DNA of 64,000 nt from Psilocybe cubensis (lineage: Eukaryota), in the NCBI GenBank assembly GCA_017499595.2, contig CM039003.1:558001-622000 (forward strand), written 5' to 3'. Positions 10,440-37,010 of the stretch are shown piece after piece. Position 1 is the stretch's first letter, and every line of letters starts with the position of its first letter. The notes beneath the pieces were generated by a model, which did no database searches, was not told the origin of the DNA, and worked only from the letters and a program-made list of their open reading frames with translations. A program made the translations under genes and the position numbers.

Positions 10440-11218
10440 ATGGCCACCACGAAGACTACCAAGGGCAAGGCCGTCGCCAAGAGTGCGTTTTCCCTCCCTT
10501 CTCCCTCCCTTCTCCTTCCCCTCCCCCAACCCTCCCTCCCTTCCCCCAACCCAACCGAAACCTAACTCCTCGTTTTCAGAGACCCCCGCGAAGGAGCAAA
10601 AAGCCAAAACCGCCAAAAAAGCCGCGCTCCAAGGCGCCCATGCGCACTCTGCGAGGAAAACGCGCTTCTCGGTGTCCTTCCACCGCCCGAAGACGCTTAA
10701 ACTTGCGCGTGAGCCCAGGTACCCGCGCAAGTCTGTGCCGCATGCGCCGAGGATGGATCAGTTTAGGACTATCGTCTCGTGCGTTTCCTCTTTCTTTGTT
10801 GTCTGGTTGATGTGTTTGATTGTGATTTTTATGCGGGGACAGACCTTTGAACACGGAGTCTGCGATGAAGAAGATTGAGGAGCATAATACTCTTGTGTTC
10901 ATTGTGGATATCAAGGCGAACAAGCGCCAGATTAAAGATGCGGTCAAGAAGCTGTATGATGTCCAGGCTTTGAAGATCAACACTCTCATCCGGTGAGGCT
11001 CACTTTACTTTTGAGCATTGGTTTTGGGTAGATGCTGATGTGCCTTTTTTTTGTGTGTGATAGACCTGATGGAAAGAAGAAGGCGTATGTCCGTCTGACA
11101 CCTGATCATGATGCTCTGGATGTTGCCAACAAGGTGCGTTGTGTTCTTTTTGTTGTGTCTACTTTTACTGATTTGGTGCTCTGTTTTTTTGTACCGTGTG
11201 TAGATTGGCTTCATTTAA
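10440..11218 (+). CDS. RPL25: 60S ribosomal protein uL23 (yeast L25 / L23a)
   Basis: Coding exons 10440-10482, 10580-10778, 10843-10992, 11064-11133, 11204-11218 give ...[20 protein letters not shown]...[40 protein letters not shown]...[33 protein letters not shown]. There is also a putative 5'UTR intron at 9878-10430. Confidence 0.98.
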
Positions 11219-13109: not shown

Positions 13110-16100
13110 ATGCGACTTTCGTTCAACGCGCTGCTCTCGGCGCTGCTGCTCGTCGCGTCCATCCGCGTCCATGTACACGCGGCACACTCGTCCAGTGTGA
13201 ATTCGCATGCGAGGAGGAGTTTGTCTTTGGAAGGGAGGGAGTTGGAGGTGGAGGGGGAATTGGTGGAGAGAGCAGGACCGCTTTTGCCTGTTGACATTGC
13301 AGGCTTGAATATCCCGGGTATCATCGGTGCGTGTCCGCCCTCCTTTGCATCACTTCACTGCTCCTTCGTTATCGTTGGGCGTAGGCTGATGTGTGTTGTG
13401 TAGGCCCTCCTGATTCTGGCAACGACGGCGGTGACAACGGCGACGGCGACGGCAACCAGTCGTCGGCTAATGCCTCCGCTTCCGGCGCCGCCCAGAGTGC
13501 GACCCCATCAAACTCTGCACCCGCCCCTTCCGCTTCCGACAACAACTCGAACGTTGGCAACGGATCTCAAGCGTCGTCGTCCGCTGCTGCGGACGCGTCC
13601 TCCGCCACACCCCCACCCGCCGCGTCGAGTACGCCTAGTGCTAGTGCTAGTGGGAATGGAGGAGGGCTGCTAGGTGGACTAGGGAGTGCGGCGAGTAATG
13701 TGGTAGGTGGGCTCACGAGTGCCCTGGGGGATGTGACGAGCGTGTTGGCGCCGACGAGTGTCACGCCCCCTCCCTCCTCCTCCTCTTCCTCTAGTGATTC
13801 AGCATCTGCATCGGCTTCAAGCGATGATAGCTCATCGTCTGCGACACCACCCCCCAGCGACTCGGCAACGCTCACCGCCCCGCCTGCATCCACGTCCACG
13901 TCTACGCCGGGAAATATACTGTCGAGCATATTGAATCCCGTTACGAGTGTCCTCTCGAGCGTGGTGGATCCGGTGACGAGTGTCCTATCGAGTGTGGTGG
14001 ATCCGGTGACGAGTGTGGTGTCAGGTTCGTTGTCCGCCTCCTCTGCTTCTTTTACGATTTCTTCTTCTTTTCCTTCTCCTTCGTTGTCGAGTTTGAGTTT
14101 GAGCTCTGTTCCTGCCCCGACTACGACTCCTAGCCCTACGGAGACCGTGGACCCGGACCCTGTATCGTCGATCCTGTCGAGCGTCGCGAGTGGTGTGGTA
14201 TCGCTTACGAGTGTATTGGACCCGAGCACTTTTTCTCCTACTTTTTCTGTTTCGTCCACAGTGGATGTTCCTTCTTCTACACCGGATGTTTCGTCCACCC
14301 CGGATGTCTCTTCTTCTACACCGGATGTCTCTTCTTCTTCTTCGTCCACCCCGGACTTTCCTTCTTCTACACCGGCGCCAGCGAGCAGCACGAGCACACC
14401 CGTGAACCCCATTTCAACTATAATTTCTATTCTATCCAGTATTGTGCTCCCGCCTGACTCTGCTTCTTCTTCTTTCCCGCTGTCGTCTGCGGCGTCTACA
14501 GATGTTACGAGTGTGCCGGTTTCGGTGTCGGTGCCTGTTTCGGTGTCGGTGCCGGTTTCGGTGTCGGTGACGAGTGTTCCGCCTGATTCGACGACGGTGC
14601 CTCCGGATTCGACGACGGTGCCTCCGGATTCGACGACGGTTCCCCCGCCTGATTCGACGACGCTCCCGCCGCCTGTGAGTGGTAGCGACAGTTCAGTCCC
14701 GTCAAGCACGACCCCTCCGCCTATCACGACGGTCTCTGTACCCCTCTCGTCAACATCAATCATCATCTCCTTCCCTAGCGGCTCGCAGAGCGCTAGTGCG
14801 AGCCAGAGCGGGGACCTCTCAGCGAGTGGCAGTGCGAGTGCGAGTGTATCGGATGGGGGCGATGCGAGTAGTACGACGGACGCGCCGTTCACGATTATAA
14901 CGAGTATTTCGGTTGACCCTGCGCTCTCGTTCGTCCTCACTGAATCGTCACTTGCGCTTGCGTCGTCGACGCCTACACCGACCCAACCAAGCACAACGCT
15001 TACGGATCCAGACCAAGTCACATCCACCCTCGATCCACTTTTAACCACAGCACCCAACGGGCAGACGACTCTAGCCCAAGCGCCCCTGCCCACGGATATG
15101 CCGGGGAGGATTTTACCAGCGGATGCGATGAACACGGCCAATGAGGATTTGGCTGGGTTCACGCTTGTTAGTATATTGTTTGATAGTGATTTGAATTGGA
15201 ACTTTGTGGTGAATAGTCGGATTTCGAGTAGTCAGATTTTTGCGTATGTGCCTGTGTTGATTAATGCGGCTGTTGGGGTTTCGGGTGAGTGGTTTGGTTT
15301 TTTCTCTCCTCCTCCTATTCGCTTTTTTCGCTCATCCTCCATCCTCTCCCTCTCCCTCCCTTTCCCGCTGTCCATGGCCCGTGTAACTGACACCCCCCGT
15401 TCTTTCACAGGCGACCAAATCAAAACGTGGGCACTCCAAGTCTACGTCCCAACAACCTACCACTCCGCCGCAGACCTCGCAGAACTCGGTACAATGTGGC
15501 TAGGCTACATACCCACGCAATACGTCAACGACCTCGCAGCGCAAATCAAAGCGCGCACGTCCCCCTTTTACACGGGTGTAGCGGACAACGTCGCGCGTGC
15601 GCTCGCCCAGCGCGTCAACTCGGGGTTCAGCATTTTGTCGGTCGCGGCGGATGCGGGTGTGGGCAGTCCGGATGGGGCGGGGCTTGGTGCCGGGGTGGGT
15701 GCGGGTGCGGGGAGTGTGGTGGGGAGTACGGGGGCTAGTGCGGGTGGTGATCGGAGTAGGCAGGACGCGATTATAGGTGTTGTCAGTGCGCTTGGAGCCA
15801 TCGCGCTCCTTGTCCTTGTCTTCCTCGTGTACCGCAGCCTCAAGCGCCGCCGCCAGCTCGCGCACCGCCGATTATCCGATCCACCCATGGTCGGAAATCC
15901 GGGTGTGAGGCAGGATGGGGTTGTTAGGGAGTTTGATGAGGATAGTATTGGTGGGCAGAGGAGACGCAGCTTTTATTTTGCGGAGGATAGTTTGAGGGGG
16001 TATCAGGGTGAGCGGGGGGAGGAGGGTGGGTATCAGTATAGTGCCCAGCATGCTGGAGGAGGGGGAGGGGGAGGAGGACAGCAGCAGATGAGCCAGAGGA

Positions 16101-16162
16101 GGAATGTGGTTCCGAGTGCGATTTCGGCGCCGATTTTGAGGGAGAATACGATGAATTGGTAG
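13110..16162 (+). CDS. MSB2: Msb2/Hkr1-family signalling mucin
   Basis: Signal peptide MRLSFNALLSALLLVASI, long S/T/P-rich repetitive ectodomain, globular HMH-like region (LNWNFVVNSRISSSQIFAYVP), one TM helix (AIIGVVSALGAIALLVLVFLVY) followed by RSLKRRR, and C-terminal ISAPILRENTMNW resembling the Msb2 tail. Introns 13327-13403 and 15285-15410. Confidence 0.88.
13935..14665 (+). repeat. Coding tandem repeats of the mucin ectodomain
   Basis: 33-bp unit (DPVTSVLSSVV) x~3, STPDVS units, 18-bp unit (VPVSVS) x3, 21-bp unit (PPDSTTV) x~4. Confidence 0.9.
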
Positions 16163-17852
16163 GGGTGGGAAGTGTTCGCATTTTTAATGTCAACTGCGAC
16201 CTTGCGACCTTGACAATGACCTTGACCCCCCCCCCCCCCCGTCCTTGCTCTCGCACTCAGTACTCACCCCCTCACCCTCGTCCTTGCCCCCGTCCTTGCT
16301 CTCGCCCTCGCCCGCGACCTGGACCCGCCGTCCTCGACCTTCTCCTTCGACTTGACCCTTGCTCAGCGCCCAACGTCAATGTTAACCTTGACCCATCCCT
16401 CAAATTTTAAACCTGATCCCTTAAAGCCGATCCCTCGACCCCTCTCGGTCTGCTTCTTTTCTTTTTTATATTTTTGTGGTTTTGGATTGGATTATGGATT
16501 CGATTGATCGATCGATTGCTACATTGCTTGTTTCTTCATTGCTTTTTTCTTCACTGCTTCTGCTTCGGTTTTCAACTTGATTATTCCACTTATTTCATAA
16601 ACCGCCTTTGTTGTTGCTTTTTACTTCACTGCGCTGCACTGCACTTCGCTTTACCCTTACACTGATATCTGATATCTGACACTGATATCTGATATCTGAT
16701 ATCGTATGTCTTATGTGGATGATGATGATCGTTGCTTTTTTATTATCCTTGATATCCCGTTTTACCCTTTTTTTCCTACTTCCTACTTCCTACTACTTAC
16801 TACCTTCTACCTTCTACCTTTCTCCAGCTCAACTAAGCTCAACCTAGCTCCTTCGGTTGCTTTTACCTTGACCTTTACCTTTACATTGTGCTTTTTTCTG
16901 CTTTTTACACATTTTTACGTCCCTTTTTTTTTTTCTTCTTTACCTTTGTTGGCTGGTTGGTATATAGTATATAAAGTATTTATGTATGCTGCTGCTGCGG
17001 TGGCGGCGGCGGTCGCAAGACTCGACGTCTCCGTGTTTCTCAAGGCTTCAGTTTAGGACTTCAGGATTTTAGGATTTTAGGATTTTGAAGGTCCGAATGC
17101 GAATGCGAATGCAGATACGAGGTATTGGCGTCGTTGTCCTTGTGGGTGGTACACCCCACTTCTTGCTACGCTTTTACTTCCGCTTCCAATTCCCCTTCTG
17201 TTGTTTGTGTTTCGGCGTTATGCGTTTTGCCATTTTTTTGGATACCAGTTTCTGGGGAAGGGGAGGATGTTGTTGTTAGGCATAGCGTTCAAACATTCAA
17301 ATGCACAAACGTTTAAAACTTCAAATGTTTATACTTGTTTTAGTGGGCCACCGCGGAGCGTGGCGTGACGAGTCTTTACGACTCAGCGTCACGCTTTGTA
17401 ATAATATAATATATATATAATATAATATAAATAATAAATATAATTACAAATCTCGAAATCATTCCCGCGCGCCCGTTTGGGTAACTGAAGAAGCGCGGCG
17501 CAATGGCGGCTATCGACTTCTTAGAAGTCGATGGGCTGCCATGAAGTGGTGGGGGTCAAACAGACCCGCCCATCTTCCTCTTTCTTCCCAACCCCCACCA
17601 TCTCCAACACCTCCCAGCAGTATTCGGCCCACCTCGTGCTAAAAAAAAACCAAAAAAATGACGAAAAATTCGGACGGATCGGCATTGACGGCAGGTATGT
17701 GCCGAATCTATTTTTATCCGCTGTTTTATTTTATTCATTGTGTTTTGTGTGTTTTGCGCTGTGCAGGCAAAACACTTGCGCGCGTATTCGTTAAAGGTGA
17801 GTAGTGGCCTGTTTTCAACCGTTATTAACTCACCTATCGCTTTTAGACGGCG

Positions 17853-18314
17853 TCACGGACGTATATCGTCCGTATTCTCTGATTTTTTGCATTTGTTGAA
17901 GGTTTTGGCCGCACGCGAGCCAGAAGCATCCTCAGTTGTACCAGATAGTTTCAGATTGTGTTTCGTCTTTATGGATTGCGCATGAAGCGCATACATTTCG
18001 GAGGCGACAGTTTCGGTCATTCCAAAATGGGCAATGGAAGAGCATACGATATAAGACTTCTTCTTCTCACAAACACATTTGAAGATGATGCATCTTTGGC
18101 ATCAAATGGGATTCATGCCCTTGCACTCTTTGCTGACGTTGGTACAACCCATGCAAGTTGGTAACGGATTGTCTCGCAAGGCGATGAGATAGGGAGAGTC
18201 GTTTGATAACGATTATTGCACAAATTCAATATAATCCTTTGCAGAGACATTGGTAAATGTCGTATTATCGATGGGGGAATGGTCATTAGCTGATTGTAAC
18301 ATGGAGCTGTCCAT
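17853..18314 (-). pseudogene. Zn(II)2Cys6-like cysteine-cluster protein pseudogene
   Basis: From ATG 18314: MDSSMLQSANDH...EFVQ*SLSND...PTCMGCTNVSKECKGMNPI*CQRCIIFKCVCEKKK. The CxxC-x6-C-x7-CxxC-x6-C spacing fits, and both stops can be explained as CAA->TAA and CGA->TGA. Confidence 0.5.
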
Positions 18315-18577
18315 TCTGAATTGTTTGAGAGATACGAAGAAAGTGAAAAGTGAAAGAAAGGAAATGAAACATCATGATGAAAAAAAAAACACAACTTTAG
18401 GGCAAGTGTATCTGTTCAAGTTTATATGACAGGTGCATAACTAAGGAGTTTATATGACAGCTGCAAAACTAAGGAAATGTTATTTTGTGTATGGCATGAA
18501 TATGAATAGAGATCTTAAAGCTGGATAGCATGAGCATCAAATAGACGCTGAGTTAAGCAAGTTCATAAACAGGATGA

Positions 18578-18622
18578 CCGTGGGAATATCCTGCGTACAC
18601 TGTACGCAGGATATTCCCACGG
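18578..18622. repeat. Perfect 45-bp palindrome (22-bp arms, 1-nt spacer)
   Basis: CCGTGGGAATATCCTGCGTACA-C-TGTACGCAGGATATTCCCACGG. Confidence 0.98.
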
Positions 18623-18819
18623 GGGCAGCACGTCACCCCTGTGTCCAATTTGATTTTATATTATGTTGACGTCACCAATACATTATGGTCCAACCACCTC
18701 AAAACCATTTGAAACGGCACAGAATAACAGAATTTGAATGCCATAGATAGTAAAACAAACTTTGATTGTTTTATGTAGAATTAAAAGCGAAGAGTAGGTA
18801 CATATTTGCAACCCACTCT

Positions 18820-21800
18820 CTAGTCAACAGTTGGACTGGACAGCAAAAATCCCCACTGTGCATAGTTGAACAATTTAAAATGATTTCCACCGGTAGCAGG
18901 TTGTGCGATGTGAATCATATGGGACATAATGACCAACGAACCATAGGGTATTTCATTCCACAAAGGAAGATATAAATCTCTGTCTTCCAGCATCTCCTTG
19001 GTGAAAGTCTTCTCAGGAAAATCCTTCAACAAAGTACGCAAATCATAAATTGGAACTGCCGCGACGTATTAAACTTGGCAATAAATAACGGGATAAACTG
19101 AGGACTCACATTTTTTGCCGTAAGCCAACATTGTGGCTTTTTTCTTGGGCTGAGGAGTCGTCTTAAGCGATACCGCCGGTGCGGTTGTAAAAAGCGACTT
19201 AGGAAGTGTCTGCGCGGTAGAGCTCATTTGTTCATCTGCTGTGTGCGGTAGTCAGGAATGTCACATAGCCAAATAGAATTATAGTACTTACCACTTTTGT
19301 CGTTCGGTTTGTTCTTGGTGGTAAATTGTATCGCGTTGTAGTAGGAAGGGACCTCTAACTTTGGTTGATGGGTTACCATCCTGATGACAGCCAAAGCCCG
19401 GTCCCACCAATATGCCATTGGAACCCCTTGGACGTAATGGCCTCCCCATGTCAATCGAGGATTCATTTCATGAAGAAACAAGGATATTGTCACAATTGGA
19501 GTTAGGCACTGTAACGGCTCTTCAGATGTGTTTCGAAGTTCGTAACATTGTCCCCACATGGACTGTGACTTCAATAGCAAAGGGCTAACGCGACCAAGAT
19601 TGATGAAACATTCCTCAATGGAAAAGTTGAGGAAGGATGCAAGAAAACTACCATTGGGAGATATATCACGAAGGATGGCAAATAATGATACATAAGTGAC
19701 TTACGTGGAGAAAAAATTCGCGCCATGCCACTGTTGTAATTGACTGAAGCCCACCAGCCCATGAACTTGAGTGGTGTCGACGTTGCTAAAGGTCTCTATT
19801 TGCCTGCACTATCTGTCAATATGTGTGCTGTGTCACATATAATTTGAGGTTTACCTGAGGTGTGGAAGGTTTTTGTAACATCCTTTCACTTCGAGTTTGG
19901 GATCTTTAGTAATTCCAACCAAAACCTCGCACGCAAATGGCAAAGCCCTGAATGATATACAAATGTATGTATAAGCTCATGTCACAAAATAAATGAGAAC
20001 ACGTACGCTGATTGAACATGATTGAGATCGGAGTTGTATACCAAAAGAGCAGGATTTCGGAGGCTACGTGGTCCCAGGGCGGGTGGCACAACACCGGGAG
20101 CCGGAATAGCGGCACTGGTGACAACAGGAGCAATAGTGCTGGCTGTAACGGGGGTGGACACCACAACAGTGTCATTGTCAGTAGCAACAGAAACAGTTCC
20201 CGCCTTGGGTGCCTGAGTATCAGGGTTTCTCCAGTTTCCCCTCTTTATCTTCACAGAATTATCTTATCATTTCATTATCTTATCAATTATCTGATTAGAT
20301 AGTTTATTTCTTTCATCACAGCCTTCTTACTCCACTTCTTTTTAGTAAATTCTATATGATTCCTAGTCTTACTCATTCTTTTTCTATATGATGCCACTTT
20401 TATTCTTTAACCTTCCTTTATGATGTAATGTAGGGAATATTCTAGAATAGCTGTAGAGTATAAATACTGGACATGTAGGTAGCTGTAGCTTCAGCTTCAA
20501 TCTTTTAGGATATCCACTATCATTGGTGTGATCTCTTAGAACCATTGAGTCTCTCTCACTTTCTTATTCTCTCTTTGCTCTCTTACTCTCCCTCTGCTCT
20601 CTCTCTCTCTCTTTTGCTTGATCTTTGTTGGTGGCCTTGTCACACTAATTATAGTGTTGCCCTGACACTAAGACTTCTTCGCAATCTTGGAACAAGGTGT
20701 CAACACTTTGCAGGTATTTTTTGAAGGAGATTTGCTTTCAGGGATTGAAAAAGGAGTTCTAATATCGACAATAGAAAGAGCATTCATCCTAGAGGACGGA
20801 GTTTCTGCAGCGGCCTTGCGGGCTGATTGCCTGGCAGGAGTAGCAGGAGTTTCGCCGGCTTTCTTCTTGGGGGTGGCCCTCTTCGTCGAAGAAGGCGTAG
20901 GCGGAGGTTCCGTGCGCATATGTTTGGTACTGCACCGCTAGGGTCAACAAAAACCAAAGTTCAAATCAAATTAATTGTAACGTACGGAGACCTATCTGCA
21001 ACCAGAGTTGCGGGTGTCGCTGGCAATTGTGACCCACTGAGATTAAAAAAAAAAACCAGCCATATCAGTACGACTTAAAAATCCGTATAACTGATGAACA
21101 ACATACTGCGTAGGAAACTCAGGTGTAGGGGTAGACTCCCTCGGCCTTTTGATCTTGCGAGATTTCTGGAGAGTTGGGGCGGAAGTAAAGACACTAGAAA
21201 CAATACAGTGAGAGAAAAACTACCAATAAGTGAGTAAAAGACTCACTCGTCGATGGGAGGTATGGGGACGCTAATGATGTCCAATCAATAATTGACCAGA
21301 CAGTGAAGATGATAACATACTTTTTAATTGGCTCCTCAATGTCCTCTCCTTTGTCAGTAAGAATACCTTCTTGCTCTTCAAGATTGTTCAAGTCATCTTC
21401 AACATCTTCGTCGCCTTTGTCTTCCTCCTCGTATTCTTCGTTCTCAAGTGCGTCTTCATCATCTTCAATAAAGTCTTCAAGGTCTTCGGAGTCACCGCCT
21501 TGCTCCTCTTCATCTTCGTCGTTGTCGTTGTCGTTGTGGTCATCATCATCATCATTCTTGTCACACAGCTCACCGTCTGTAACCACCTCTTCTGCATCAG
21601 ACGCCCCTTCATATTCCTTATCAGCTTTGACCGCGTTGACCACGCCGCTGCGGAAACTCCTTGGCAAAGCCTAATATAGAAATTCATTAGAAACGAAACG
21701 TAATTTCCCAAAGGAAAAACGTACATGGGGTTTCTATAAAAAGTGCGAATATTATTTAAGAAAATAGGTTTAGAGCGCAAAACAATCTATAAAACAAAAA

Positions 21801-22240
21801 AAACGTACCCAGGCCTAAAATTCGTTTCACTGACAGTCACATGGGCCTTCTTGGGCTGTATAGGAGGGACTTTGGATGAAGAGGGCTGTTGAGCAACAAC
21901 ATTGGATGTAGGTTTACTAAAAGCACACAATGGTCAACAACAGACTTATAGCAAGACGAATAAAAACACTGTACGTTGTTTTTTTTTTTGGGGCAGCTCT
22001 CTTAACCTGGGCGTCCATGTCAGCAGTTTTTCTAAGGAGAAAAACAAAGATAAAGGTAAGTTAAATTTGGGAACAAAATAACAGAGGTACATACTTGACA
22101 ATCTTCGCCGCAGCAACTCGTTTGTTGGCGACCTTTCGAGCAGGGGGCGCTGCACTAACAGGAGGGATAGCAAGAGCTGGGAACGGAAGTCAAACTGCCA
22201 AAGCAGCAGTATCAGCGTTCTTTTTAGCTTTAGGAGGCAT
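18820..22240 (-). pseudogene. Multi-exon gene: basic N-terminus, acidic tract, S/T/P-rich linker, C-terminal putative OB-fold domain; interrupted by a solo LTR
   Basis: ATG 22240 (MPPKAKKNAD..., early in-frame TGA), acidic exon ~21320-21670, and last exon VPIYDLRTLL...LPLWNEIPYGSLVIMSH...LFNYAQWGFLLSSP. The frame KKS|QAPK is restored when the LTR is removed. Confidence 0.6.
20218..20667. mobile_element. Solo LTR (450 bp)
   Basis: TATCAGGG...CCCTGACA termini, 5-bp TSD CTGAG/CTAAG (one transition), closely similar to 59255-59700. Confidence 0.92.
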
Positions 22241-22702
22241 TTAAGGATGAAGTCTTAGGGAAAGTCGAAGCGTGGATGACAAGGACAAGAAGAGGGATAA
22301 CAGAGAATATATGCCAAATCAATTGGCTTGGACGTAGATAACGATTAGGGCCATCGAATCTTTCAGACGCAAAGTAAACAGGAGAGTAGGAAGAAATTTG
22401 ACCTAGCAGAAACCTTGGAATTCTCAAAGGAATGACCAATCAATTTTAGTGATCACTTGAAGAGAATATCCAAAGACCATGGTGTGAATGATCATACCAA
22501 AAAAGATAAAAATGAAGATCCATAAGAACAGGGGGCATAAATGAAGAACAGCAAGAACAGGAGGGGCAGGCATACATTATAATATATCAAGTGCAATTTG
22601 ATTGAGCACGATACAGAAGTACTTTGACACCCTTGGAACGTCATTAACAATGGACAAGAACTACGACATAAACACCGCGAGTGAGTTTTCCTTTCATTCT
22701 TC

Positions 22703-23882
22703 ATGCGTACAAAAGCTGATTAAGATTCAGAACTTAAACTTGAAGAAATAGTGAACAAACGACGATTGAACCCCAGCCACGTTCAATTATACGACGCAGA
22801 TGTAAGGAATTCAATTGCTAAGCTTCAAAAACTTGCTAACGACTCATGTAGATACAGAAGTATGAAATCACCGAATTCTTGACGCCCAAATCATGGAGGA
22901 TGTCCGACTTTGACATGGATATTGGTGCAATGGACGAAGTGATATTCAGACTCCAAGGCATAGTTAGCAACAAGATGCTACCACCAATGGCAAAGCCTGC
23001 TTCATATGTCCACTCCATTGAGGTGAATTAATTACAAATGAGGACTTAACACTGTTTACAGCCGCAACAGAATGGTCAAGCAACGACCATATTTATGTAC
23101 CGCCATTGCTATCACGGGACTTAGAGACATTGCATTCAATAAGGCAATGGAAAAGCTAGAAGAAGTTTTTCTCTGTTTTGCAAACAATTTTCCCGCGGAC
23201 AGCGTCAGCGGCTATGACCCAGTTCTTCACAAAGACACGGGTTTCAACATTTTCCATGCGCATAGCCAATATTTCACAAAGGTATCCGCATATCAAGATG
23301 AATCTGACAACATAGGTTTTCATCCCCTGGTCGATCCTGATAACGTGTTGGCATCCATGGCAGGGGACGGTTTCATCCACGCAATCGATAACAAGGTACA
23401 GTTTCTTTGTCGGGAGATACTTCCTGACAGAACAGCCAGGTATGTTTAGGAAATACCAACAATGCATCACAACCAAACTAACATCATGTTGCAACAGATA
23501 TTATCCTTATAATCCTGCCTCCATACGAATTGGAGACATTGTCGAGATCAGTGTTGCCTTTGTTGCATTTCCTGCCCAAGGAAACAAGTACAAATTCGTT
23601 GTCGCTCTTCGCGGAATACTTGTCTTGGACCAGGAGGCAAGAGAGGTAAGCAATGTTACGTTGAACAGTCTCATAGCCATTCATAACTTCCAACAGAAAG
23701 CTAATATTCTCAGAATGTGGTCGCGCTATACTCCAGCAAAAAAACAGGTTGCTGTTTTGTGTAGGACAAAGAGGCAGCTATACAAAGGTCAGATTGACAT
23801 TGAAGACACGCAACAGAGGATGGCATGTATGCGCTTAAACAAGGACACAGTCCACAATAGCAATACTATGTCCCAAGATTAA
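22703..23882 (+). pseudogene. Putative OB-fold (ssDNA-binding-like) agaricomycete protein pseudogene
   Basis: Exons give ...DEVIFRLQGIVSNKMLPP...FHAHSQYFT...VDPDNVL...HAIDNKVQF...PASIRIGDIVEISVAFVAFP...KFVVALRGILVLD. There is an early stop and a donor apparently mutated GT->AT near 23004. The start is approximate. Confidence 0.6.
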
Positions 23883-24030
23883 TACATACATAGTACATAG
23901 AAAGACAAGGATATTATAAATGTGCTAAACGAACAATCAATCCATTTGCAAGAACATTGTGAATAACAAGGAATAATTTGTCAAGTCATTTTCATGACAG
24001 AAATTATCTGAAGGTGTTAGTTGGCACCCC

Positions 24031-24210
24031 GTGGGAGAATCCTGCGTACACTGTACGCAGAATATTCCCACACTTGGCTGAATATCGGCGAGGAAGTCCG
24101 TGGGAGAATCCTGCGTACACTGTACACAGGATATTCCCACACTCGGCTAAATATCGGGAGAGGTTGACTGTGGGAATATCCTGCGTACAGTGTACGCAGG
24201 ATTCTCCCAT
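24031..24210. repeat. Array of three 41-bp imperfect palindromes, period ~69-70 bp
   Basis: Copies at 24031-24071, 24100-24140 and 24170-24210 (third inverted), same family as 18578-18622. The two spacers resemble each other. Confidence 0.95.
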
Positions 24211-24291
24211 GCTCATCCGCAAGTCAAACTTACAAATTAAGACGGAAAGAATGAGGACAAGAACACAAGTTTATTTCGAACAAAAATTTGA

Positions 24292-25699
24292 TTAAGGATG
24301 GAAGAAATTACAAATATCCATTCCACAAGAGGCTCTGTGGTCAAGGGCAATGCAACCAAAAAATATCTGCCTTTCTGGATAGCAAATACAAAACAGTCGC
24401 ATGTACACAGTCATCTTTTTGTCTATATTACAGGAATTAAATTGACGAATGCTAAAACTAAAGAGCACACACCTTATACCCTTTTCCCAGGATTTGATAG
24501 CTTTTTTGACGCGCTTGTGTAATTGGTAAACATCCGCCGCTGTGTAGTGAAAATCCAATGCAATACCGCTGATGCGACGGACACCAAAATGCAAACAATT
24601 GAATTCATCGAGCAACAATGCCCATGAATTAGCTTCAATAAAGGAAGTCTGATTTGCTTTGGGTAAAAGAGGCAAAGAATAAACCCAACAATGCCTGTCG
24701 CCAACCCGTCTAATCCCAGGAGAGAACAACTCTGGACAAGGATCGTAATGCAGCTCAACGAGAACATGACCACGAGATGAACTATACCCAACATTTAAGT
24801 TGTCCCTGATAGACTGTATCCTGCTTCGGATATGGCAGTCCATTTTCAAAGCTTGCAATAGAATGGAAAGAACAAATTTCAAGCCACGGGAATGATATTT
24901 TGCAAGAAATTTTTGCGCGCGCTTGAGGTCGGCAGGAGGTTGCAACAGAGAGACTTGATGTCCAAAGGTAGCATTTGGATACAAGCTGTACACCTTCTCA
25001 AAGGTAACAAAATTCATGACGCCGGCTGCAGTAGAACAAAATTGAAGTTAACATTGTTTTGACACATGACATTGGGGACATACTGCTATAATACCCCAAA
25101 ATGCACTCTACCACCAATTGACAAGTCGTAATCAGTTGGACAAAAGAACCTTGGCGCCATAGGTTAACGACCACTCCGGTGGTATTGTAATGTTGATGAA
25201 GAGGATGTTCCTGAAGGACGATTTTTTCCATTTTCAAAATTTGTTCCACCGTGGCGTTGTCCGGATATTTGGGATGCGGCATGATGGTAAATCCAATGGA
25301 CATCATCCAGGAAAGAATGGGAAGAGCATATCTGTGCTCAACATACATGTCCATGTTACCCGGAATCCATGTATTAGCACGATTGATAAAATGCAAAACG
25401 GTGGAATCTGAAATAACTAGGCCAGTCTTGAACTGGAGAAGACAAAACGGCAAATGTTCATTGGGTTTGAAGATAGGAGCAAATAAATTTTTGGGACGGA
25501 AGGCGCGGCACATATAGCCCAAAACGCGGTTGTTTAGCTTCTTGCAAGTCCAAGAGAAACGGTAGAGGGTTTTCAGATCCATCTGATCCATGTACACATC
25601 ATCCATGGGAGGCGGAAAGACTCTAAAAAATAAGTAATAACCAAATGAGATAAAACAGTGAACATACTGTTGGAAACGGGGGGATAACGCGGAAGCCAT
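24292..25699 (-). pseudogene. F-box-like N-terminus plus pol-beta-type nucleotidyltransferase-like domain, probably decayed
   Basis: ORFs 24998..25699 and 24292..25017 join by an intron: MDLKTLYRFSWTCK (F-box-like), GLVISDSTVLHF-x8-PGNMDMYV, VQLI, ILGYYST-GVMNFVT, YSLYP, KYHSRG, RRVGDRHCW. Confidence 0.6.
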
Positions 25700-27147
25700 G
25701 GGTAAAACAGTGCAGAGGAAAGTGCATTGTTTATATTACGTCAATAAATATATTAACCGTAAGCCGATAGACACCCGACGTAGGGGAAGAACAAATTGGT
25801 ATGCGTGAGAAACGATCATGAATCAGAAAATCAAATTCAAATAGTACAGAACGCCCAAAACCCAAGAACGTGTAATTATTGAACGTGTGTGCCTGCACAG
25901 TTCTATTTCCAACCTTTCAGACCCATAGTTCAAAGAGTGCATTTGTTCCATCTCTAAGTATTAGTACAATATATAAGCACGTCGGCTAGACGGTTCTACA
26001 TGGTTTTAAAAATTAAACAACAACGCAAAAAAGTGAATTGAGTAGGACTATTGTTGTAATTAATTTTATGGAAACGCACATTTACATTGCGATCAAAACA
26101 AATCAAAAACAAACTTTAAAGTAACCAATGGTAAAAAGAAGTCGTAGAATGAATTGGAAAGGGGTTGCTTAGGAGGTCCGGTGACCGCTTAAGGAAAATA
26201 CCGATACCGGTAATGATATTGATTGCATCAATAATATTTTGATGGGGACAATTGGCGAGGACATTTTTGCTCGCTGGGTTGTGGGGATAAAAGAACTCAT
26301 CTTTACTTATGTAAAGACTCATAATACACATGCACATTGTGCTTTCCACTTTCTACTTCCTTTCAGCTGCATCTGCGTTTTTAGATTTTATTGGTTTCAC
26401 TTTCTATGTTTTATACTATGTTCAGGTTATATGAGTATATATTGTCTTTCTCCTTTCTTGATTCTTGATATGGCTGGCCGGGACTGACTGACTGTCAATG
26501 ACCAGTGCTTGGTTTTGTGTCCCATGGCTGTCATACCGTGTCAGTGCCAAGTTTCAAGTTTTAAGTGCCTTTGCTTGTGCTCGCTAAACATTTTTTTTGT
26601 TTTCTCTCAGTCATTTATTTTTCTTGTCATACATACATCGTATATATAGTATGTAGAAGGAACTGGTAAATATATTAACACAGCTTTTTTAATTCCCTCA
26701 GATCTGTCTGTTTATTGACTCTTGAGTATTGAAGCATGAGTGCTTGTGTTTTGACTGGCTGAATCTTTCAATATCTGATATAAAATTGTGCTGTACTAAT
26801 ACTGTACATCTGACATTACTAGCAAAAAGTCCAAAAACATCCTTAACTATTAGGACCTGCTTTTCCCTATTGCTATTATACTTATCATATATTAACAATA
26901 TGCCATGAATTTGTTTGTCTCACAATGGGTCTTTCTCCGAATTCCTCCATTTTGGTGCTACAACCATTTCCATTACTCTCCGTCTTATTTAATCGACTAT
27001 TTATTTCTATGTCTTCAGTTTTCATCATTAACTGCCTACCCTACCACTGCTCTCATATCAATATCATTCTGCAATGTCTTCCCTTATGATTCACGGCTTT
27101 TTTGCCCTTGCAAAGGGTCGTCACGCTTCGTCTTCCCGCCCTGGCGG

Positions 27148-28776
27148 TGAAGATCGAAGTTTGTGATTGGTTATAAACTATATGTAATCCAACAAACACA
27201 AACCCCAGGGAAAGAGTGGTCCAGACTGGATAGGACAAAACCTTCTCCTAAGTTTCTTAAGGGAGGACGCTGCCTAGGATTTAAGTAGATTAGGATGGTG
27301 TGGATTGTGAAGGGTAACGAAAGCGAAATAGTAAGAAGAGGATAACCGGGTCGTCTGGGTACGATAGTAAATAAGCCTTCCGAAAATGGGATGGAACCGT
27401 GGAATTGGATGGCGGGTGTATATGGAAAGCGTGAAGAAGATGCGTAGAATGCGTATGAGAAATCAATAAATGTGAATCTTAGAGGGGTTGTCTGAAGTGA
27501 GTGGGGAACGTTCCGAGGGGAGATGAGAAGATGACTAGGGGTTGGAATGTCGTTAACGGGCTGAATCTTGGAGAATGGTGAAAGTGTCTTTAAATTGACA
27601 ATCTTTCTGAAGCTTGGAATGAAGCTATACGTCGCAGGAGTATTCACTGAATCGAGGATGAAAGACTAAGTCTGTCTCGAATAAAATCGCTCCAGATGAG
27701 TTGACGGAGGGAAAGAATGTCTTGAATTCACTCCTAACGGCGATGGTTGGAAGGTGTAGAAGGAGTAGGAGCGGTGACGGATTGAATGGAGGAGAGGAAG
27801 TAGGGAAGTACTGGAGGTCTGAATAGAAGTTGGATATTCAATGCTGAGAAAAAGAGGCGTTGGATGAGGAGGATGACTGGTCTCGGATGAAATCCTCTCT
27901 TAATGGAAAGCGAGATGACTTTGGATGAATGGAAGTAAACTTGGTCTCGACGGAGGGTGGAACTGATGACTGAATTGGACTTGGGTTTGGACTTGGCTTG
28001 AACTTGAGCTTGGAATTGAAATGAATCGATGTGGATTGACTTGAAATTGACTTGACTTGGATGAAAATTGACTTGCTTTGAAGAAAGTGGGGACTGGGTG
28101 TAACTTTCCTGTCATTTCATGTAATTCTACTACAGCTTTTATACTAAAAGCTACGTGAACGAAATACCAATCTGAGCTACTGAAAACCGAGTCATATACT
28201 GTACAAAGTGTCAAGAATGAGGCTACGCAAGTGTAACAATAAGCAAGAATAATAAGACATGTCAATATCGACACGACAACAGACAAGAAATGAATAGGAA
28301 GAGTAAGAAAGAAGTGTATGACGAAGGTGAATGGTAATACAGATTAGATAAAAGAAGCAAGGATGAGTTAGAAAGCATAGAAGATTGGTAAGACAAAGAC
28401 AATAAAAGCGCAACAGACAATAGAAAAGATATAAATAAACACAAAAGGATGAGTAAGACAAACCAAAAATAAGTTGGAATGAGTAATCCGCAGCCTGACG
28501 CTGAGTAAGACTATTGAATTGATAAAAATAAAGTTGACAGTCCGGCTGTGCAAGGCAGTGTAGAAAGCTGTGCAGTTTGATGGTTGACTGATCCGTCGCA
28601 TAGCCTTGATGATCCAACGAAGTGACATGATCCGGAATAACGTGGCTCCCATGTGACAAGTGTTGATAAGATAAGATGTGTGGATGACTTATGGAAAGAA
28701 TGACTGCTTGGGTTGAGGGCGTCGTGTGTAGATCCAAAATGAACATCTCATCTCCAATCAGGATTGGGGTATGATA
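27148..28776 (-). repeat. 3' LTR of the gypsy element
   Basis: Direct repeat of 37011-38639; I counted about 7 differences, all transitions. Confidence 0.97.
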
Positions 28777-28834
28777 TCCGTCCCAAACTTGAGAAATCAA
28801 CCGTCCCCGGTTGCGGAAGGAAGGGGGGGATAGA

Positions 28835-31800
28835 TTAGAAATCATCCATATCGTCGCTCCATGTGTCTTCATCTTCCTCACTCTCGTGTCCAAGTTCTCT
28901 GATCATCCGGTCTAGCTGAGGTCGAGGAATGACTGAACCGTCTCATGGAAAATAGCGAAGAAGTCGGAAAGCAGCTACACCTTGAGCCAGTTGCGTACTA
29001 TTAAGTTCTCTAAGCACATATGATCCTCCTCGTGTCTGTCGTACAACTTCGTAAGGTCCAAGATATCGTGGCTTGTGCTTGCGATTCATCTCCTTCTCAA
29101 CTTGACTGTTCCTAACGAGGACTAGATCACCAAACTTGAAGCTTTCTTGTCGAAGACGTCGAGCAAATTGTCGTTCAAAAGTAGCTTTGGATTGAAGTCG
29201 TGATTGTTTCAGAACGTCGGCTATGTTGGCTAAGTCTTCATCTCGTTTCATGAGTTGTCGAACACGGAGAGCTAGGAGATCTTTGGAACTCATTCCTTGT
29301 CGGAATCCATCAACTAGAAATGTGGCTTCAAGGAGATCAAATGGAAGAACAGGATGAACACCATGCATGACGTAGAAAGGGGAATGTCTAGTAGAGCGTC
29401 GAGTGATGCATTTGTCAGAGAAGAGTGTGTGATGAACATACTGTGGCCAGTCTAGAGGTTGGTCACCGCAAGCTTTGAGAATGGATTCACGGAAGTCAAT
29501 GTGACCACGTTCAATAGATCCATTGGCTTTAGAGTTGTAAGGAGAAATGCGAACTTGAGGAATGCCGTACTTTTCCATCAAAAGACTGAAAGCGCCAGAG
29601 ACTTCTACTCCATTGTCCGTGCGTACAATAGCAATAGCACCATATCGGCATATGACTTCTTCCCAAAAGAAAGTAGCCAGCTCTTCGGAACGTAAAGACT
29701 TGAGGGCACGTCCTTCAGGTGCACATGATAAGTCGTCTCGGGCTAGGACTACGTATCGGAAGCGTCCAGATTTGGGCATGTACATGACGTCGACATTGAT
29801 GATAGTGAAGATAGTTGGGGGAGCTGTGATAGTGATAGGAACTTCGCTTTTCTTGGTGGATCTGATCTGACATTCATGGCAAGTAGCGAGATGATGCTTG
29901 ATATCCTGAAAAAGAAATGGCCAGAAAAACCGAATGCGAATAACTCCAAACACACCATATACTCCTCGATGTCCGAGTTCTTCATGAGCTTGAGTAAGAA
30001 TGAGACGTCGCTTGTCTGGATCTAGAATAACCAAGAGTGGAGGTCTTCCTTGTCGTCGTCGATAGAGTTGATCATCTTTGAGATAGTACTGAGTAGCGCG
30101 AGCAAGGAATCGTCGTCGGGACTGCAAATTGGGAAAAGGGGGTATAGTTTGGTCTGTAAGAAATTGAAGAATTTGTCGAAGTGTCCGTTCTTGAGAAGAA
30201 GAAGAAGCAATAAAAGAAGGAAGCGAGATAGAGTCATACAATGGCATAGAAGAGGGAGTAAAAAGAAAAGTAGGGAAAAATTTGACCGTATTAAGAAGAG
30301 CAATATTGTCGAGCCAGTCATCGTCTTCTTGAGGTTCTTCTAACTCTTCAGAAGTTGGTTGTTGCCTTGAAAGTCCATCAGGTCCACGATGATTACCGGC
30401 CTTTACATGGATGAGCTTGAAGTCAAAGAGAAGAATGCCTTGTATCCATCGATTCATACTAGCACTAGGCTGCAAGTCAGGCTGATTGAGCATGCCTTTG
30501 ATATACTTGGCGTCGACTTCAACGTAGAGGTTCTTGACTCCAATAAGATAGAGGCGGAATTCTCGAAGAGCACGGAAAAGACCATATAACTCAAGCTTGG
30601 GCTGACTGTATCGTGCTTCTCGTGGATTAAGTGAGATAGAACCATAGCGGACAGGTCGTCGGATGCCTCCTTTGTCAAGTTGATAGAGAATGATACCAAT
30701 AGCAATGTGAGAAGTGTCCACGGCAAGAATAACTGGGCGATCGGATGAATAGTCAATAGAAGTGAGAACAGGAGGATTGGAAATGATTTCTTTGAGAGTT
30801 TGGAAAGAGTCTTCTCGTTGTTGGGTCCAGACAAAGGGTTTGTCCTTACGATAGAGTTCTGTGAGTGGTCGGACAAGGGCTGAGTAATTTCTGATCCAAA
30901 CACGCATTGTTCCGCATAGACCTAGAAAGGATCGGATGTCGTGCACAGACTTTGGTCGTGGCCAATCAGTGACTTTTTGTACCTTGCTCTGATCGGGTAG
31001 TCGTCCATCCGGAGTGCATAACTGTCCAAGGATAAGAACTTCAGGCTGAGCGAGCTGAGTCTTTGGTCCAGAAAATGTAGCACCAGCACATCCCATGCGG
31101 TGCATAACTCGATGAACATCTTGAGCGTGTTCCCAGACAAATCGTTGTATTCCTGGATTTTCTGGAAGTGTTTCTGGATTGCCGTCCTCGTCTAAGTACT
31201 GTGTTGGAGGGCCTTTGATAGGAACATCGTCGATAAAGACATTGGCTACGTGAGGGATCTCGTCACAAAGGATAAAGGTGGTACAGGCTTGAAATTCCGC
31301 TACTGCATTCGTATATCCCATAGGCATTGAAGTAAGTCGAAGAGGTCCAATAGGCGACTGGAATGTGGTAAGATCTCGGCTTATAGGATGGATTTTGCGT
31401 GCGTCATATCCCCAATATAAGTCAAAGACCGTGTAAATAGAATGACCAGCAAAGGGAACCACAAAGTCGTCAAGAACTGGAGGAACTCCTGCATCGCGAT
31501 AGGAAATAGAGTTAAGAATCTGCAGATCATGAACTAGACGGATAGCACCAGATGTCTTCTTCTTGACCCAGAAAATTGGAGAGCGATACGGAGCTTGGCT
31601 TGGTTCGTATACTCCAGCGTCTATCTTTTCACGTAAGAGACTGATAACTTGATCCTTGATGCCGGGTGGAATAGGAATATTTCGGACTACCCAGGGCTCG
31701 TGATCCTCAACAGGAAAGATGTATGGAGAGAAGTATTCTTCAGAAAATGTTCCACGTTCGGACTGATGAAAAGCGAGTGAGTGTTCATTGAGTTTAAGAA

Positions 31801-34800
31801 TATGAAGGAAAAGCTTTTCTTCTTCCGGCCATAGGAATTTGTTGGCGTTAATGTTCATTGATTGTATGCGTTCAAGAGTGAGTCTGGTTGTTGGTGTAAA
31901 GGCAGGGGGATGGAGCGGGAGAGGTGGGAGAGATAATAAGGGATCAACAGGAATTTGTTGTATAACTTTGGCCGATTCTGGAGTAACCCGATTTATAGGT
32001 CTAACTTTCCGATCAACTTGTTTATAGGCAGTATTGGCAGAAGAGGGGGAAAGAATAGGTGATATGAATTGATTCATGGAGGCTCGGAAGGTTGATAGTG
32101 TTGATCCTGACGCGGCAGTGAATACAAAACCAATTGTAGGAGAGCTTGACGACCTTGCCGAATTAGTTTGGTTGACGGTGGGTTTAGCAGTAATATCTGA
32201 ATTGAGTGACCATGATCTCGCATAAATGCTTTGATCTATCCGAAATTTCTGTAGGTCTTGACCCATCAGAGGTAATGGAGTGGTCATCCTTCTTATCTTG
32301 TCCGTAAGCTTGATTTTTCGCTCTTTGTGGATAAGATGAAGCCCTTCCCGATTCTGTAGGAGTTCGAGGTGTATTGGAGGCGTGATGGTGGTGTATATTG
32401 GAGATAGAGATTCCGTATAGCATTCCTTTGGGAGGTTGCGTGTGTTTCTCCAAGAACTCTGCAATAGGTGACCTGAGGATTTGTTTGCGGACTGAAGTGG
32501 TGAAGCGGGGGTGGAACAAATAAATAAAAGGGAGGAATAAATAAAGGTTAGTTTAACGACTTTTCGGTCGACGTACATACAAATGGATAAAGTGGAAAGA
32601 AAATGGAAATAAAAGGTAAAGGAAAAGGTTGTATGGCGTGGAGTTGCCATTGAGAGTGTGAATGTGAGGAAAAGGCGCATAAAAGAAAAGTGGAGGCATT
32701 CAAGAACTCGTTGCACAAATGAAAAATCTACATAAGTGTCCGTAAAATGGAAAAGAGAAACGCAAAATGTGGAAATAAAATGGGAGGTGGGATAAAGGCA
32801 TAACAATGAGGAAGAAGAAACACCAGCAACAGCAAAGGTGACAAAGAAAAATTGAGGGGATCGGAGAACAAAGAGAGGGCGTTGAGGAAGCAAGCTGATG
32901 TCCATGCACCGTCCAGATAGTCAGTACAATGTGTTGGCGTCCAAGGGATGTTCTTCTGTGTTGTCGATACCAAAGGGACTTTCTTCTCCATACTGATAGT
33001 ACCATTCGTTTCCATCATTCATATTTGAAGCTCGTGATTCGTGCATTGTGCTGGTTATGGGAAAAGGTAAAAGGGAAGAATTGTGGTCGACCTCTTTGCC
33101 ATTTTGGGCTATTCGTAGCTCTTCTTCATCCTCGTTTAATGGCTCCTTCGGACTGTCGTGGGCTACTCGCAGAGGATGTACCAAAGCTTTCGGGCCTCGA
33201 TGATGCTCGTCTACATTTGCGGTGACCGTCGATGATACACGTGTTTCTTGGTGAATCATAATCGAAAGAGGTGTCTCTGGAAGAGCAGAACTTCGGGAAT
33301 GAGGTTGGGGAATAGGAGAAGCGTTTTGAGAGCGAATGGATTGGGGAATAAAATGAGTCCAGGATGCTGAGTGACGTTGGCCCATTGGATAGGCACTGAC
33401 TGAAGCAGAGTGGTTAGATTGAGACGAGATACCAGTGCGACTGAAGTGTAGAATAGTTGGAGTCGTCGTCAAGTTTATATGGCTGTCTCTCTGCAGATAA
33501 ACATAATGGACAAAGGCCGTTCCTGTTCGGTCAGAAACAACACGAGTAGGAGAAGAATAAGTGGCGTCGTATAGAATCCAGTCTTCAAAGCGCAAGTGGG
33601 GGTTGAGCATTCCCATAGCCGTAAGGTGAGTATTGTCAGAAGAGAATTGAATAGCTTCTACTTCGGGTGAGCTCAATTGTTCCATTTCTGGATCATCATC
33701 AGCTGGTTCTTCTTCATGTGGGTCGTTATTGTCTGAAGTGTGGGATTTGATGGACGGATTGACAGATGGTGATGGTGGCTGTTCTATTTGTGGGGCCTCA
33801 TGTGTGGAATCGTAAGGTGGTGTGGAAATATGACCATAATGGGCTGTCGCATTGAATTGAGAAGTTCCCGAGTCATCTTGATACATTGAGTCATAATCGG
33901 AAGCGTAGAGACCGTGAGAGGAGTCCTGAGTCGAGTCATGTTTGCAGTTGGAGTCAGAGAAAGAGGGTGCATCTTGTGAAGTGGATAAGTCCTCATTTGG
34001 GTTAGCAGATTCGTCCCGATTCAGAGATTGTTGCCTAGTAAGGATAGATAACTCGATCATAGAAGGGGTAGGTGATGGATAGCAAAGGTCATCCAATAAT
34101 TCACCGGGTTCTAGATCTTCTTCAATTTCACCTTCTTCGGCATCCGGATTAGCTAAGGAGAGGTTGTTGTGTGCTAACATTGTGTGGGGGGTCTTGTCGT
34201 AAATGGTATCCGTGAAGTAACGCCGGTCGTGCTGAGTATCAGGTGTCACAAGGAATTTCTGCTCACGTGTAGGATCTTTGACGTCATAGAAGGCAATGAA
34301 GGTCCCTTCGGGTTGTTCTAGAATGTCCACATAGTTGTCACGGGTCCATGGACGTCCTAAGAGTATATCAAACTGGACTTTGTCGGATACATAGCAATGA
34401 GCACGCGTCCTGACTGTACCAATATCAAGTTGAACATTTCCAACGAATCCAAGCATGTGGGATTTGCCGCCATGAATATCGACCATAACAATAGTATTCC
34501 GGCTGTCCATCGGCAACTTGACAATCTTCTTCCAAGCCTGTTCGCTTAGAATATTCTGCGTAGATCCACTGTCAATCAAGGCATTGAGTTCGTGACCATT
34601 ACACATTAATGTGATTCGAAGAAGGGGCTCGTGAGCGCGAAGGGATTCGACTGAATTGGTCTCGTGCATGTATTGAACAGGTACGTCCTTTTTGGCACTG
34701 CGAATGATGTCTAGAACTTCCTTATCGGAAAGCTTTAAGTTGCCGTTTGCCAATGAAGCTTTGAATTCGTCGACAGTAAGGGTCTTGCCTTTGATGCTGT

Positions 34801-36805: not shown

Positions 36806-37010
36806 AGCGTAAACCAGTTACAGAGTCAGAAAGTGTTGCCTAGAATTATTGCCTAGAGTTGCCTAGAGTTGCCTAGAGAATAGACCAGCGAAGCGAAATA
36901 ACCTGTAAAGAAAAAGAGTCGAAATGGATGGAATGGAAGTGATAAAGTGGTAGATTGCTGTGTTCCTAATACAAAATCCTAATTAACCCTCCCTCGCGGT
37001 GGGCTCCAGA

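Follow-up and report, generated by a model that had tools for sequence, protein, structure and literature searches.

A dispersed four-gene block of Psilocybe cubensis is very probably a deletion derivative of a large Helitron2 element with a predicted T7-type single-stranded DNA-binding protein

What kind of unit is the block of four adjacent genes found in a 64,000-nucleotide stretch of the Psilocybe cubensis genome (contig CM039003.1, positions 558,001 to 622,000), and how does it move? We refer to this whole stretch as the window and number positions from its first letter. An original prediction, made from the letters of the window, placed the block between 17500 and 26299 and regarded it as an arm of an undescribed large mobile element, either a giant Helitron-like rolling-circle element or a virus-like one. 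All four predicted genes (gene 2, gene 3, gene 4, and a Zn2Cys6-spaced open reading frame [ORF]) are present, at the coordinates given below. We find the block to be a complete element with both ends in the window and not an arm, and it very probably arose by internal deletion from a 26.4-kb Helitron2 (HLE2) with a reversed RepHel, which left it non-autonomous. The common termini, a RepHel-bearing copy, the deletion, dispersal to unrelated sites, and CpG-biased decay are all directly seen. The ends and the RepHel-bearing copy confirm that it belongs to a giant Helitron-like rolling-circle element, and the group, Helitron2/HLE2, is one already described.

Alignment of copies fetched from the genome shows that homology stops sharply at window positions 17333 and 26324, and the edges are sharp in all 19 paired copies examined. 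The element thus spans 17333..26324 on the minus strand, with 26324 as its 5' end by Helitron2 convention. The true left end lies outside the previously proposed limit of 17500, and the right part, which had been thought to be cut by a Helitron at 26300, is intact: position 26300 belongs to an arm of the element's own terminal hairpin, and the end at 26324 is the same as in other copies. A search of the genome with window 17400-26300 returned 170 matches, and there are at least 28 left ends (91 to 100% identity; 40 of 48 candidates scored) and at least 29 right ends (96 to 100%; 40 of 53 candidates scored), so the block moves as a repeated unit, as had been anticipated. The flanks are unrelated among the 19 paired copies, and target overlap is 0 in 15, 1 in 3, and 3 in 1, showing that there is no target duplication. 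The sequence just beyond the 5' end (26325-27147) is single copy.

Three of the copies are long (the window copy, C6:712824-721207, and C3:3668727-3695135), and between the window copy and the arms of C3 the identity is 96.5%. The commonest copies are approximately 5.1 kb, with 101 bp of the left end fused to 22900-26324 and gene 4 holding a nested 1565-bp sister-family element; 14 of these aligned pairwise are 98.1 to 98.9% identical. The empty site of the nested sister element lies in the window, with a single T shared. We also note a rearranged 3.7-kb structure (G000:C14:211452-215132) with two 5' ends pointing outwards, and one short copy inserted within another (C1:4181388-4191566).

Bao and Jurka's definition of Helitron2 is matched by the termini point by point (PMC3627910). 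The 3' terminus (17333..17380, minus strand) consists of a subterminal inverted repeat at 17368-17380, a GC hairpin at 17347-17364, and the end CAAG(T), and the 5' terminus (26300..26324, minus strand) has an inverted repeat at 26310-26322, 2 bp from the end, that overlaps a 7-bp hairpin at 26300-26317. On the minus strand the element begins with T, and its ends read TTACG/TACG and CAAG(T). The C3 copy has a 13-bp asymmetric repeat 2 bp from the 5' end with its inverted copy 35 bp from the 3' end. The hairpin containing the 5' repeat has a 7-bp stem (-4.7 kcal/mol) that is equaled in 3 of 200 shuffles of the window copy and 11 of 200 of the C3 copy; two bases of the window copy's terminal repeat have undergone CpG transitions. 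The 3' subterminal hairpin has a seven-pair stem with 92.4% of 105 cells paired in 15 aligned ends, using the structure taken from one sequence. One compensatory pair is A-T in eight and G-C in seven of these sequences, and covariation is 0.184 versus 0.106 in shuffles, uncorrected for kinship among the 15.

Helitron2 repeats are 8 to 15 bp, with the 5' copy at 0 to 2 bp and the 3' copy at roughly 20 to 50 bp from the respective end. Short asymmetric inverted repeats, a 5' hairpin containing the repeat, a 3' hairpin, an initial T, and no target duplication are thus all present, and a DUF6570-RepHel, the mark of HLE2 (PMC11417382), lies between the termini of the C3 copy; the window copy is without RepHel. 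The end structure also resembles that of the Fusarium FoHelis (PMC5148889). Insertion at T|T, the Helentron/HELIANO rule, is not seen, as one T is shared at the site and the flanks vary freely, which is not decisive because HLE2 target sites differ between families (PMC5148889). Helitron1/HLE1 ends (5' TC, 3' CTRR, and no inverted repeats) are likewise not found, the repeats being asymmetric and the end letters different. Related ends occur elsewhere. Among the best 80 of 394 metagenomic RepHel relatives (49 to 69% identical; the scan was centered on RepHel, gene 3 alignments being too diverse), the 3' motif is full in 13 loci and partial in 3 more, compared with 0 in 20 shuffles, and the first nine bases of the 5' end are common to a sister family (family B, below) and loci L146, L149, and L160.

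The C3 copy shows where the mobilizing enzyme lies. It is 26.4 kb, the window element plus a 17.9-kb core at position 17906 (loci L032, L054, L055, and L116), and contains the best of 17 genomic DUF6570 matches. This belongs to a stop-free 2781-residue RepHel frame with DUF6570 (E 7.5e-42), Helitron_like_N (3e-31), and PIF1 (2e-28) matches, together with HUH, tyrosine, and Walker/helicase motifs; its C-terminal 300 residues have no match among PDB sequences. The frame points toward the 5' end and is reversed, as in FoHeli4/5. The prediction that no mobilizing enzyme would be visible is thus correct for the window copy, but in the C3 copy the enzyme can be identified as this RepHel. It had also been proposed that the genes accompanying the block in intact copies be listed; HUH and PIF1 are found in the C3 RepHel, and homologues of genes 2 and 3 lie beside related RepHels.

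The deletion junction at 17906 removes RepHel, a second nucleotidyltransferase (NTase)-like gene, a JmjC-like gene, other ORFs, and four palindromes, 17.9 kb in total. Both breakpoints cut genes, which identifies the window copy as a deletion derivative. On the left, a small gene (17658..17906, plus strand) retains its first three exons, and the third intron of its stop-free six-exon, 110-codon C3 model spans the breakpoint. On the right, the Zn-cluster frame crosses into the core and is stop free for 432 codons in C3, 296 of them inside the core; stop-free runs of this length cover 79 of 15462 core positions outside RepHel and the Zn-cluster frame. The core also holds a gene 4 paralogue, the JmjC-like gene, and several unannotated spliced ORFs, and we regard it as original and not inserted because the Zn-cluster frame and the intron cross its breakpoints and it shares palindromes and a gene 4 paralogue with the arms. 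The C6:712824-721207 copy has the same junction and different flanks, so the derivative itself has moved. The C3 master is apparently intact.

Two other candidates for the autonomous partner were rejected. A RepHel fragment inside a C7 sister element (L051) has another copy without the family ends and with an end of its own, and is an unrelated insertion; a degenerate RepHel at window 42300-47300 has no DUF6570 match and no close copies, and is not linked to the block. The latter is strongly CpG depleted (observed/expected ratio, 0.46).

The window copy is itself probably dead. As predicted, it carries C-to-T and G-to-A lesions: of 298 substitutions relative to the C3 copy in 8529 aligned bases, 232 are C>T/G>A, and 146 of these are at CpG, which makes up 896 of 3647 C-dinucleotides. 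Among changes private to the window copy, 164 of 179 are of this type. This CpG bias is consistent with methylated CpG having been deaminated. Among the lesions are two stops in the Zn-cluster gene, changes to two gene 4 motif residues (G>A), and changes to two 5'-end bases, and gene 2 is split by a 450-bp solo long terminal repeat (LTR) at 20218..20667, with a 5-bp target duplication containing one mismatch. The solo LTR is absent from the other two long copies, and a second copy of it lies at window 59254-59701.

Gene 3 (22650..23882, plus strand) is predicted to code for an SSB (a protein that binds single-stranded DNA [ssDNA]) with a T7 gp2.5/Enc34-type fold, as seen in an AlphaFold2 model of the sister copy P0001 (predicted local distance difference test [pLDDT] score of 88.7, 123-sequence alignment). 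This model has an OB barrel and a long helix after the second strand region and matches T7 gp2.5 (1je5) with a VIA Z score of 11.4 (root mean square deviation [rmsd] of 5.5; 169 aligned residues), followed by the Enc34 SSB (10.2), DUF2815 (9.5), and African swine fever virus (ASFV) CP312R (7.6); the next best match is 5.6, and Foldseek agrees with a T7-type SSB (E 9.4e-6). The T7-type reference group, comprising T7 gp2.5, Enc34 ORF6, DUF2815, and ASFV CP312R (PMC5686142), thus shares the barrel and long helix with gene 3 and supplies its four top structural matches (Z 7.6 to 11.4 versus 5.6 or lower). Gene 3 differs in being an intron-containing nuclear gene, whose likeness to the group is known from predicted structure. 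Identity to the T7-type SSBs is 8 to 15%, and the C-terminal tail mixes basic and acidic stretches. None of the 123 family members matches the Pfam RPA, Ssb-like_OB, or another SSB model, and P0001 has no match in PDB sequences or PHROGs, although profile matches are not expected when identity is only 8 to 15%. As modeled, gene 3 folds like T7 gp2.5-type SSBs and would bind ssDNA.

Relatives of gene 3 number at least 605 at an E value of ≤0.001 among 50%-identity clusters and are basidiomycete by Atlas; an NTase-like domain is attached in 3 of 150 listed relatives (Coprinopsis and Candolleomyces). The main gene 3 exon has 35 genomic loci, 28 in the window family and 7 in HLE2 family B, and as all lie inside these two families, no host copy is seen. 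In the short copies, the 17433/22900 junction places an in-frame ATG of gene 3 directly after the AT-rich terminal stretch, and the shortened 271-residue product keeps the whole SSB barrel in the model.

Gene 2 (18820..22240, minus strand) has a long low-complexity, acidic N terminus and a conserved C-terminal region of approximately 240 residues. It occurs in the genome only in the three long copies and in one weak match, and has a homologue in family B. Two OB-fold ssDNA-binding proteins had been proposed for the block, and this has been borne out for gene 3 only: a single-sequence AlphaFold2 model of gene 2 has a pLDDT of 36.5, comparison with the gene 3 profile gives an hhalign probability of 1 to 3%, and there is no match in a PDB profile search or Pfam.

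The two genes keep company beyond this family. Among the 80 metagenomic RepHel loci, gene 2 homologues are found in 23, SSB homologues in 10, JmjC-like core gene homologues in 5, and NTase-like homologues in 3. SSB and gene 2 lie head to head upstream of RepHel in 9 of the 10 SSB loci (five groups), as they do in family B, and are head to head in the window copy as well; this arrangement is kept in five independent locus groups at approximately 30% protein identity. Many of the 80 loci are short, and the upstream sequence reaches 8 kb or more in 13 (10 groups when clustered at 85% identity); of these, 9 have gene 2 and 7 have SSB (6 and 4 of the 10 groups, respectively). Two loci, L146 and L149, are complete 16.4-kb elements with ends, SSB, gene 2, and RepHel. 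We also note that L205:117-168 (reverse) has a 3' hairpin nearly identical to that of the window family, with a reversed RepHel, SSB, gene 2, and three tandem NTase-like genes.

Three sister families are present in the same genome. Family B (G000:C5, C6 [three copies], C10, and C20) is a 24.2-kb HLE2 with at least seven copies, 99.97 to 100% identical where compared, and carries SSB and gene 2. Its RepHel has 2808 residues, lies in the usual orientation, and is 61% identical across the Rep region. The ends of family B are homologous to those of the window family, with the same 3' motif and a stronger 5' hairpin. Two family B copies have 2.8 kb extra beyond the 3' end, an end bypass. Family C (G000:C2 and C7) is 30.7 kb, has DUF6570, and starts with TGCCT like FoHeli3-5, and family D (C4 and C9) is 18.6 kb, with DUF6570, an end layout like that of the window family, and several NTase-like genes.

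The alternative that survives best accepts a Helitron2 derivative but holds that its genes are captured passengers without a role in transposition. Helitrons do capture genes, and several related RepHel loci are without the pair; in the most numerous derivatives gene 2 is lost, gene 3 lacks its start, and gene 4 is interrupted, and a gene-free 1.56-kb sister element has also moved. However, the genome has no host copy of gene 3, the head-to-head pair recurs in the five independent groups at such low identity, and gene loss in non-autonomous copies is expected of trans-acting factors. We consider this alternative unlikely.

Far less probable is the proposal that the 17.9-kb RepHel segment is a separate Helitron inserted in an older gene-bearing element, the window copy being the original form with some other mobilizer. 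Only one of the three long copies has the segment, and a shared T bounds it, as would be the case at a Helitron target, and the unrelated RepHel fragment in the C7 sister element is a true parallel in the same genome. Against this, a frame enters the segment by 296 codons and an intron spans its other end, no terminal motif is seen at the ends of the segment, the palindrome is common to segment and arms, and RepHel relatives elsewhere have ends that match the outer ones. A virus-like element, an integrated provirus or Polinton-like, with a replication module is about as improbable, or slightly more so. It draws on the nearest structural matches of genes 3 and 4 being in phages and large DNA viruses, and had been offered in the original prediction, but no capsid, packaging ATPase, polymerase, or integrase was found among the scanned ORFs (sets of 13 and 10, with part of the core exons), the genes carry spliceosomal introns, and no RepHel relative is present among 91 candidate stretches in viral contigs. 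The hallmarks of Polintons and endogenous viruses (capsid, PolB, integrase, and terminal inverted repeats with target duplication) are likewise lacking in the scanned ORFs and ends. Ordinary single-copy host genes adjacent by chance are refuted by the dispersal of the block, at least 28 copies of which share their ends but lie in unrelated flanks.

Several observations weigh against a Helitron2 derivative with its own working gene kit. The gene 3 fold match has an rmsd of 5.5 and TM scores of 0.36 to 0.50, and the accessory pair is not universal: of the 13 loci with long upstream regions, 4 are without gene 2 and 6 without SSB, and families C and D have NTase-like genes but no SSB match. Neither families B to D nor the 80 metagenomic loci gave a match to the palindrome described below. 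The pattern used to search for termini was refined once the first matches had appeared, and the six-exon gene model is our own, a donor site having been altered after the first version showed stops. The master is single copy and could be a composite in which one element has inserted into another, a history that would account for its reversed RepHel and its two NTase-like paralogues. Roles in transposition, expression, and ssDNA binding are those suggested by sequence and model.

If the block is an internal-deletion derivative of this Helitron2, then, going by what is known of Helitrons, RepHel supplied in trans would nick at the 5' hairpin end, displace one strand as far as the 3' repeat and hairpin, and paste it beside a T. 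The long displaced strand may be coated by the T7-type SSB that the element itself encodes, a role attributed to RPA homologues in plant and animal Helitrons. SSB and gene 2 are probably an accessory pair of long standing, transcribed divergently and retained throughout this clade of Helitrons. More variable passengers may be the NTase-like, JmjC-like, and Zn-cluster genes, which would act on host silencing or element expression, a suggestion about which we are evenly divided.

Gene 4 (24308..25699, minus strand) codes for an F-box-like N terminus and an NTase-like domain, the latter from a structure match of the paralogue P0013, and in the model it looks like a Gad2-related nucleotidyltransferase. 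P0013 matches Gad2 (PF26128) clusters of large DNA viruses with TM scores of 0.46/0.64, which meets the Atlas naming bar, and matches PolyA_pol clusters more weakly; basidiomycete clusters are matched as well. An hGS..DxD motif is present in the C3 gene 4 and its homologues, with the first Asp replaced by Asn in several homologues, and gene 4 has no sequence-level Pfam/HMM match. Gad2 is a predicted nucleotidyltransferase, a phage anti-defense protein that blocks Gabija (10.1101/2023.05.01.538930). The likeness thus consists of the predicted-structure match of the paralogue to Nucleocytoviricota clusters and the GS..DxD motif; unlike Gad2, gene 4 has the extra F-box-like N terminus, and the TM score by query is just 0.46. 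The F-box label, given to 11% of one cluster only and without a Pfam match, is a lead only.

The Zn2Cys6-spaced gene (17907..18314, minus strand) is the 5' part (136 codons) of the 432-codon C3 frame, truncated and with two premature stops. Its cysteine spacing, C-2-C-6-C-7-C-2-C-6-C, is read directly, and we take it to be the Zn2Cys6 binuclear-cluster consensus; Pfam gives no match for the gene, and the 80 metagenomic loci hold no homologue. The JmjC-like core gene is so called from an HxD motif, which we presume to be diagnostic, and has a weak KDM4B match (E 0.11). Overall, genes 1 to 4 and the scanned core ORFs have no significant family in Pfam or PHROGs.

The block also has a palindrome family of its own, as predicted: there are four in the window, all within the block and each downstream of a gene 3' end. 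A perfect 45-bp palindrome (18578..18622; -26.5 kcal/mol, z -10.3) lies between the gene 2 3' end and the start of the Zn-cluster gene, and three in tandem (24029..24218; 24029-24071, 24098-24140, and 24170-24210) lie where genes 3 and 4 converge, between their 3' ends. A search of the window gave eight strand matches versus none in 100 shuffles. The C3 copy has eight, four of them in the core; seven are downstream of a gene end, with two triplets between converging genes, and one is between diverging genes. The nested sister element has two palindromes and its C7 relative has six. This 1565-bp sister (L033:3030-4594; relative G000:C7:3335822-3343761), which sits inside gene 4 in every short copy examined, has no frame longer than 89 codons, and has in common with the master only its two ends (79 to 85% identical) and the palindrome (up to 96%). 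In one palindrome variant, 8 of 41 positions have changed and 18 of 20 still pair. That symmetry is kept even without genes favors a cis role on DNA, though arm-to-arm conversion could also keep it. The palindromes may, at about an even chance, be hairpins read in rolling-circle copying or symmetric protein-binding sites; two-way 3'-end signals for converging genes are a somewhat less probable function, and neutral by-products are improbable. Other long palindromes, unrelated in sequence, are near metagenomic RepHels (L143:5003-5748, L166:3704-3750, and L189:13331-13373).

Elsewhere in the window there are motifs near 10900-11200 that we take to be RPL25-like, a 925-codon stop-free mucin-like frame (13385-16159), and a full-length LTR retrotransposon (27148-38640) with 1.6-kb LTRs that are ~99% identical and many genomic copies. 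At 49649-57386 lies an element that has transposase-like fragments and inverted ends of 46 bp, and a 385-bp inverted-repeat element at 58493-60506 contains the second solo LTR.

Among known systems, FoHeli3-5 of Fusarium oxysporum ("HLE2-reverse"; PMC5148889, PMC3627910, and PMC11417382) are alike in their asymmetric repeats, hairpins, 5' T, lack of target duplication, DUF6570-RepHel, reversed ORF orientation, and self-insertion of family members. They are 5 to 11 kb, whereas the C3 element is 26.4 kb with several whole intron-bearing accessory genes, and the window family has internal palindromes, other terminal sequences, and a single T as its target. The rice Mothra mother element and RPA-bearing Helitrons (PMC4683698) similarly keep an ssDNA-binding gene while RepHel is lost and shorter derivatives arise below them; here, in contrast, the SSB is T7 gp2.5/Enc34-like, the clade is HLE2, and the host is a fungus. 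HELPO1 of Pleurotus ostreatus, with its cap genes (PMC4289320), is likewise an agaric Helitron with whole genes that lack copies outside the element, but its 3' ends are the canonical CT[A/T]G and its length does not exceed 13.7 kb. The ssDNA-binding helpers described in Helitrons are RPA and Ssb-like_OB (PMC4683698 and PMC11417382), and with such helpers already known in HLE2 the concept itself is not new. In literature listings, subscription journals aside, we found no description of large cargo-bearing agaric HLE2s or of a T7-type SSB in Helitrons.

It is a tentative proposal, somewhat short of an even chance, that an agaric clade of 16- to 31-kb Helitron2s comprises organized multigene replicons, in which RepHel, a virus-type SSB, and gene 2 make up a conserved core, with an anti-silencing module that can be exchanged (a Gad2-like nucleotidyltransferase, a JmjC-like enzyme, and a Zn-cluster regulator) and, in the window family, the palindrome as a third cis signal, the core genes deriving from large DNA viruses or phages. 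A 26.4-kb HLE2 with several whole spliced genes contrasts with a 2019 review in which fungal Helitrons are 6 to 7 kb, up to 14 kb, and whole-gene capture is exceptionally rare (PMC6431247). Two accessory genes keep their head-to-head layout beside related transposases in unrelated samples. The derivative has lost its transposase and kept helper genes, one with a predicted fold like that of the SSBs of phage T7 and giant viruses, and this suggests that these fungal transposons have their own small set of genes and not random captured fragments. A T7/giant-virus-type SSB would be a further independent SSB recruitment and would link fungal transposons with large DNA viruses. The elements also give an origin to a family of hypothetical proteins, at least 605 clusters strong, whose genes are annotated as the host's own, and the apparently intact master, together with its graded natural deletion derivatives, makes the accessory genes and palindromes directly testable.

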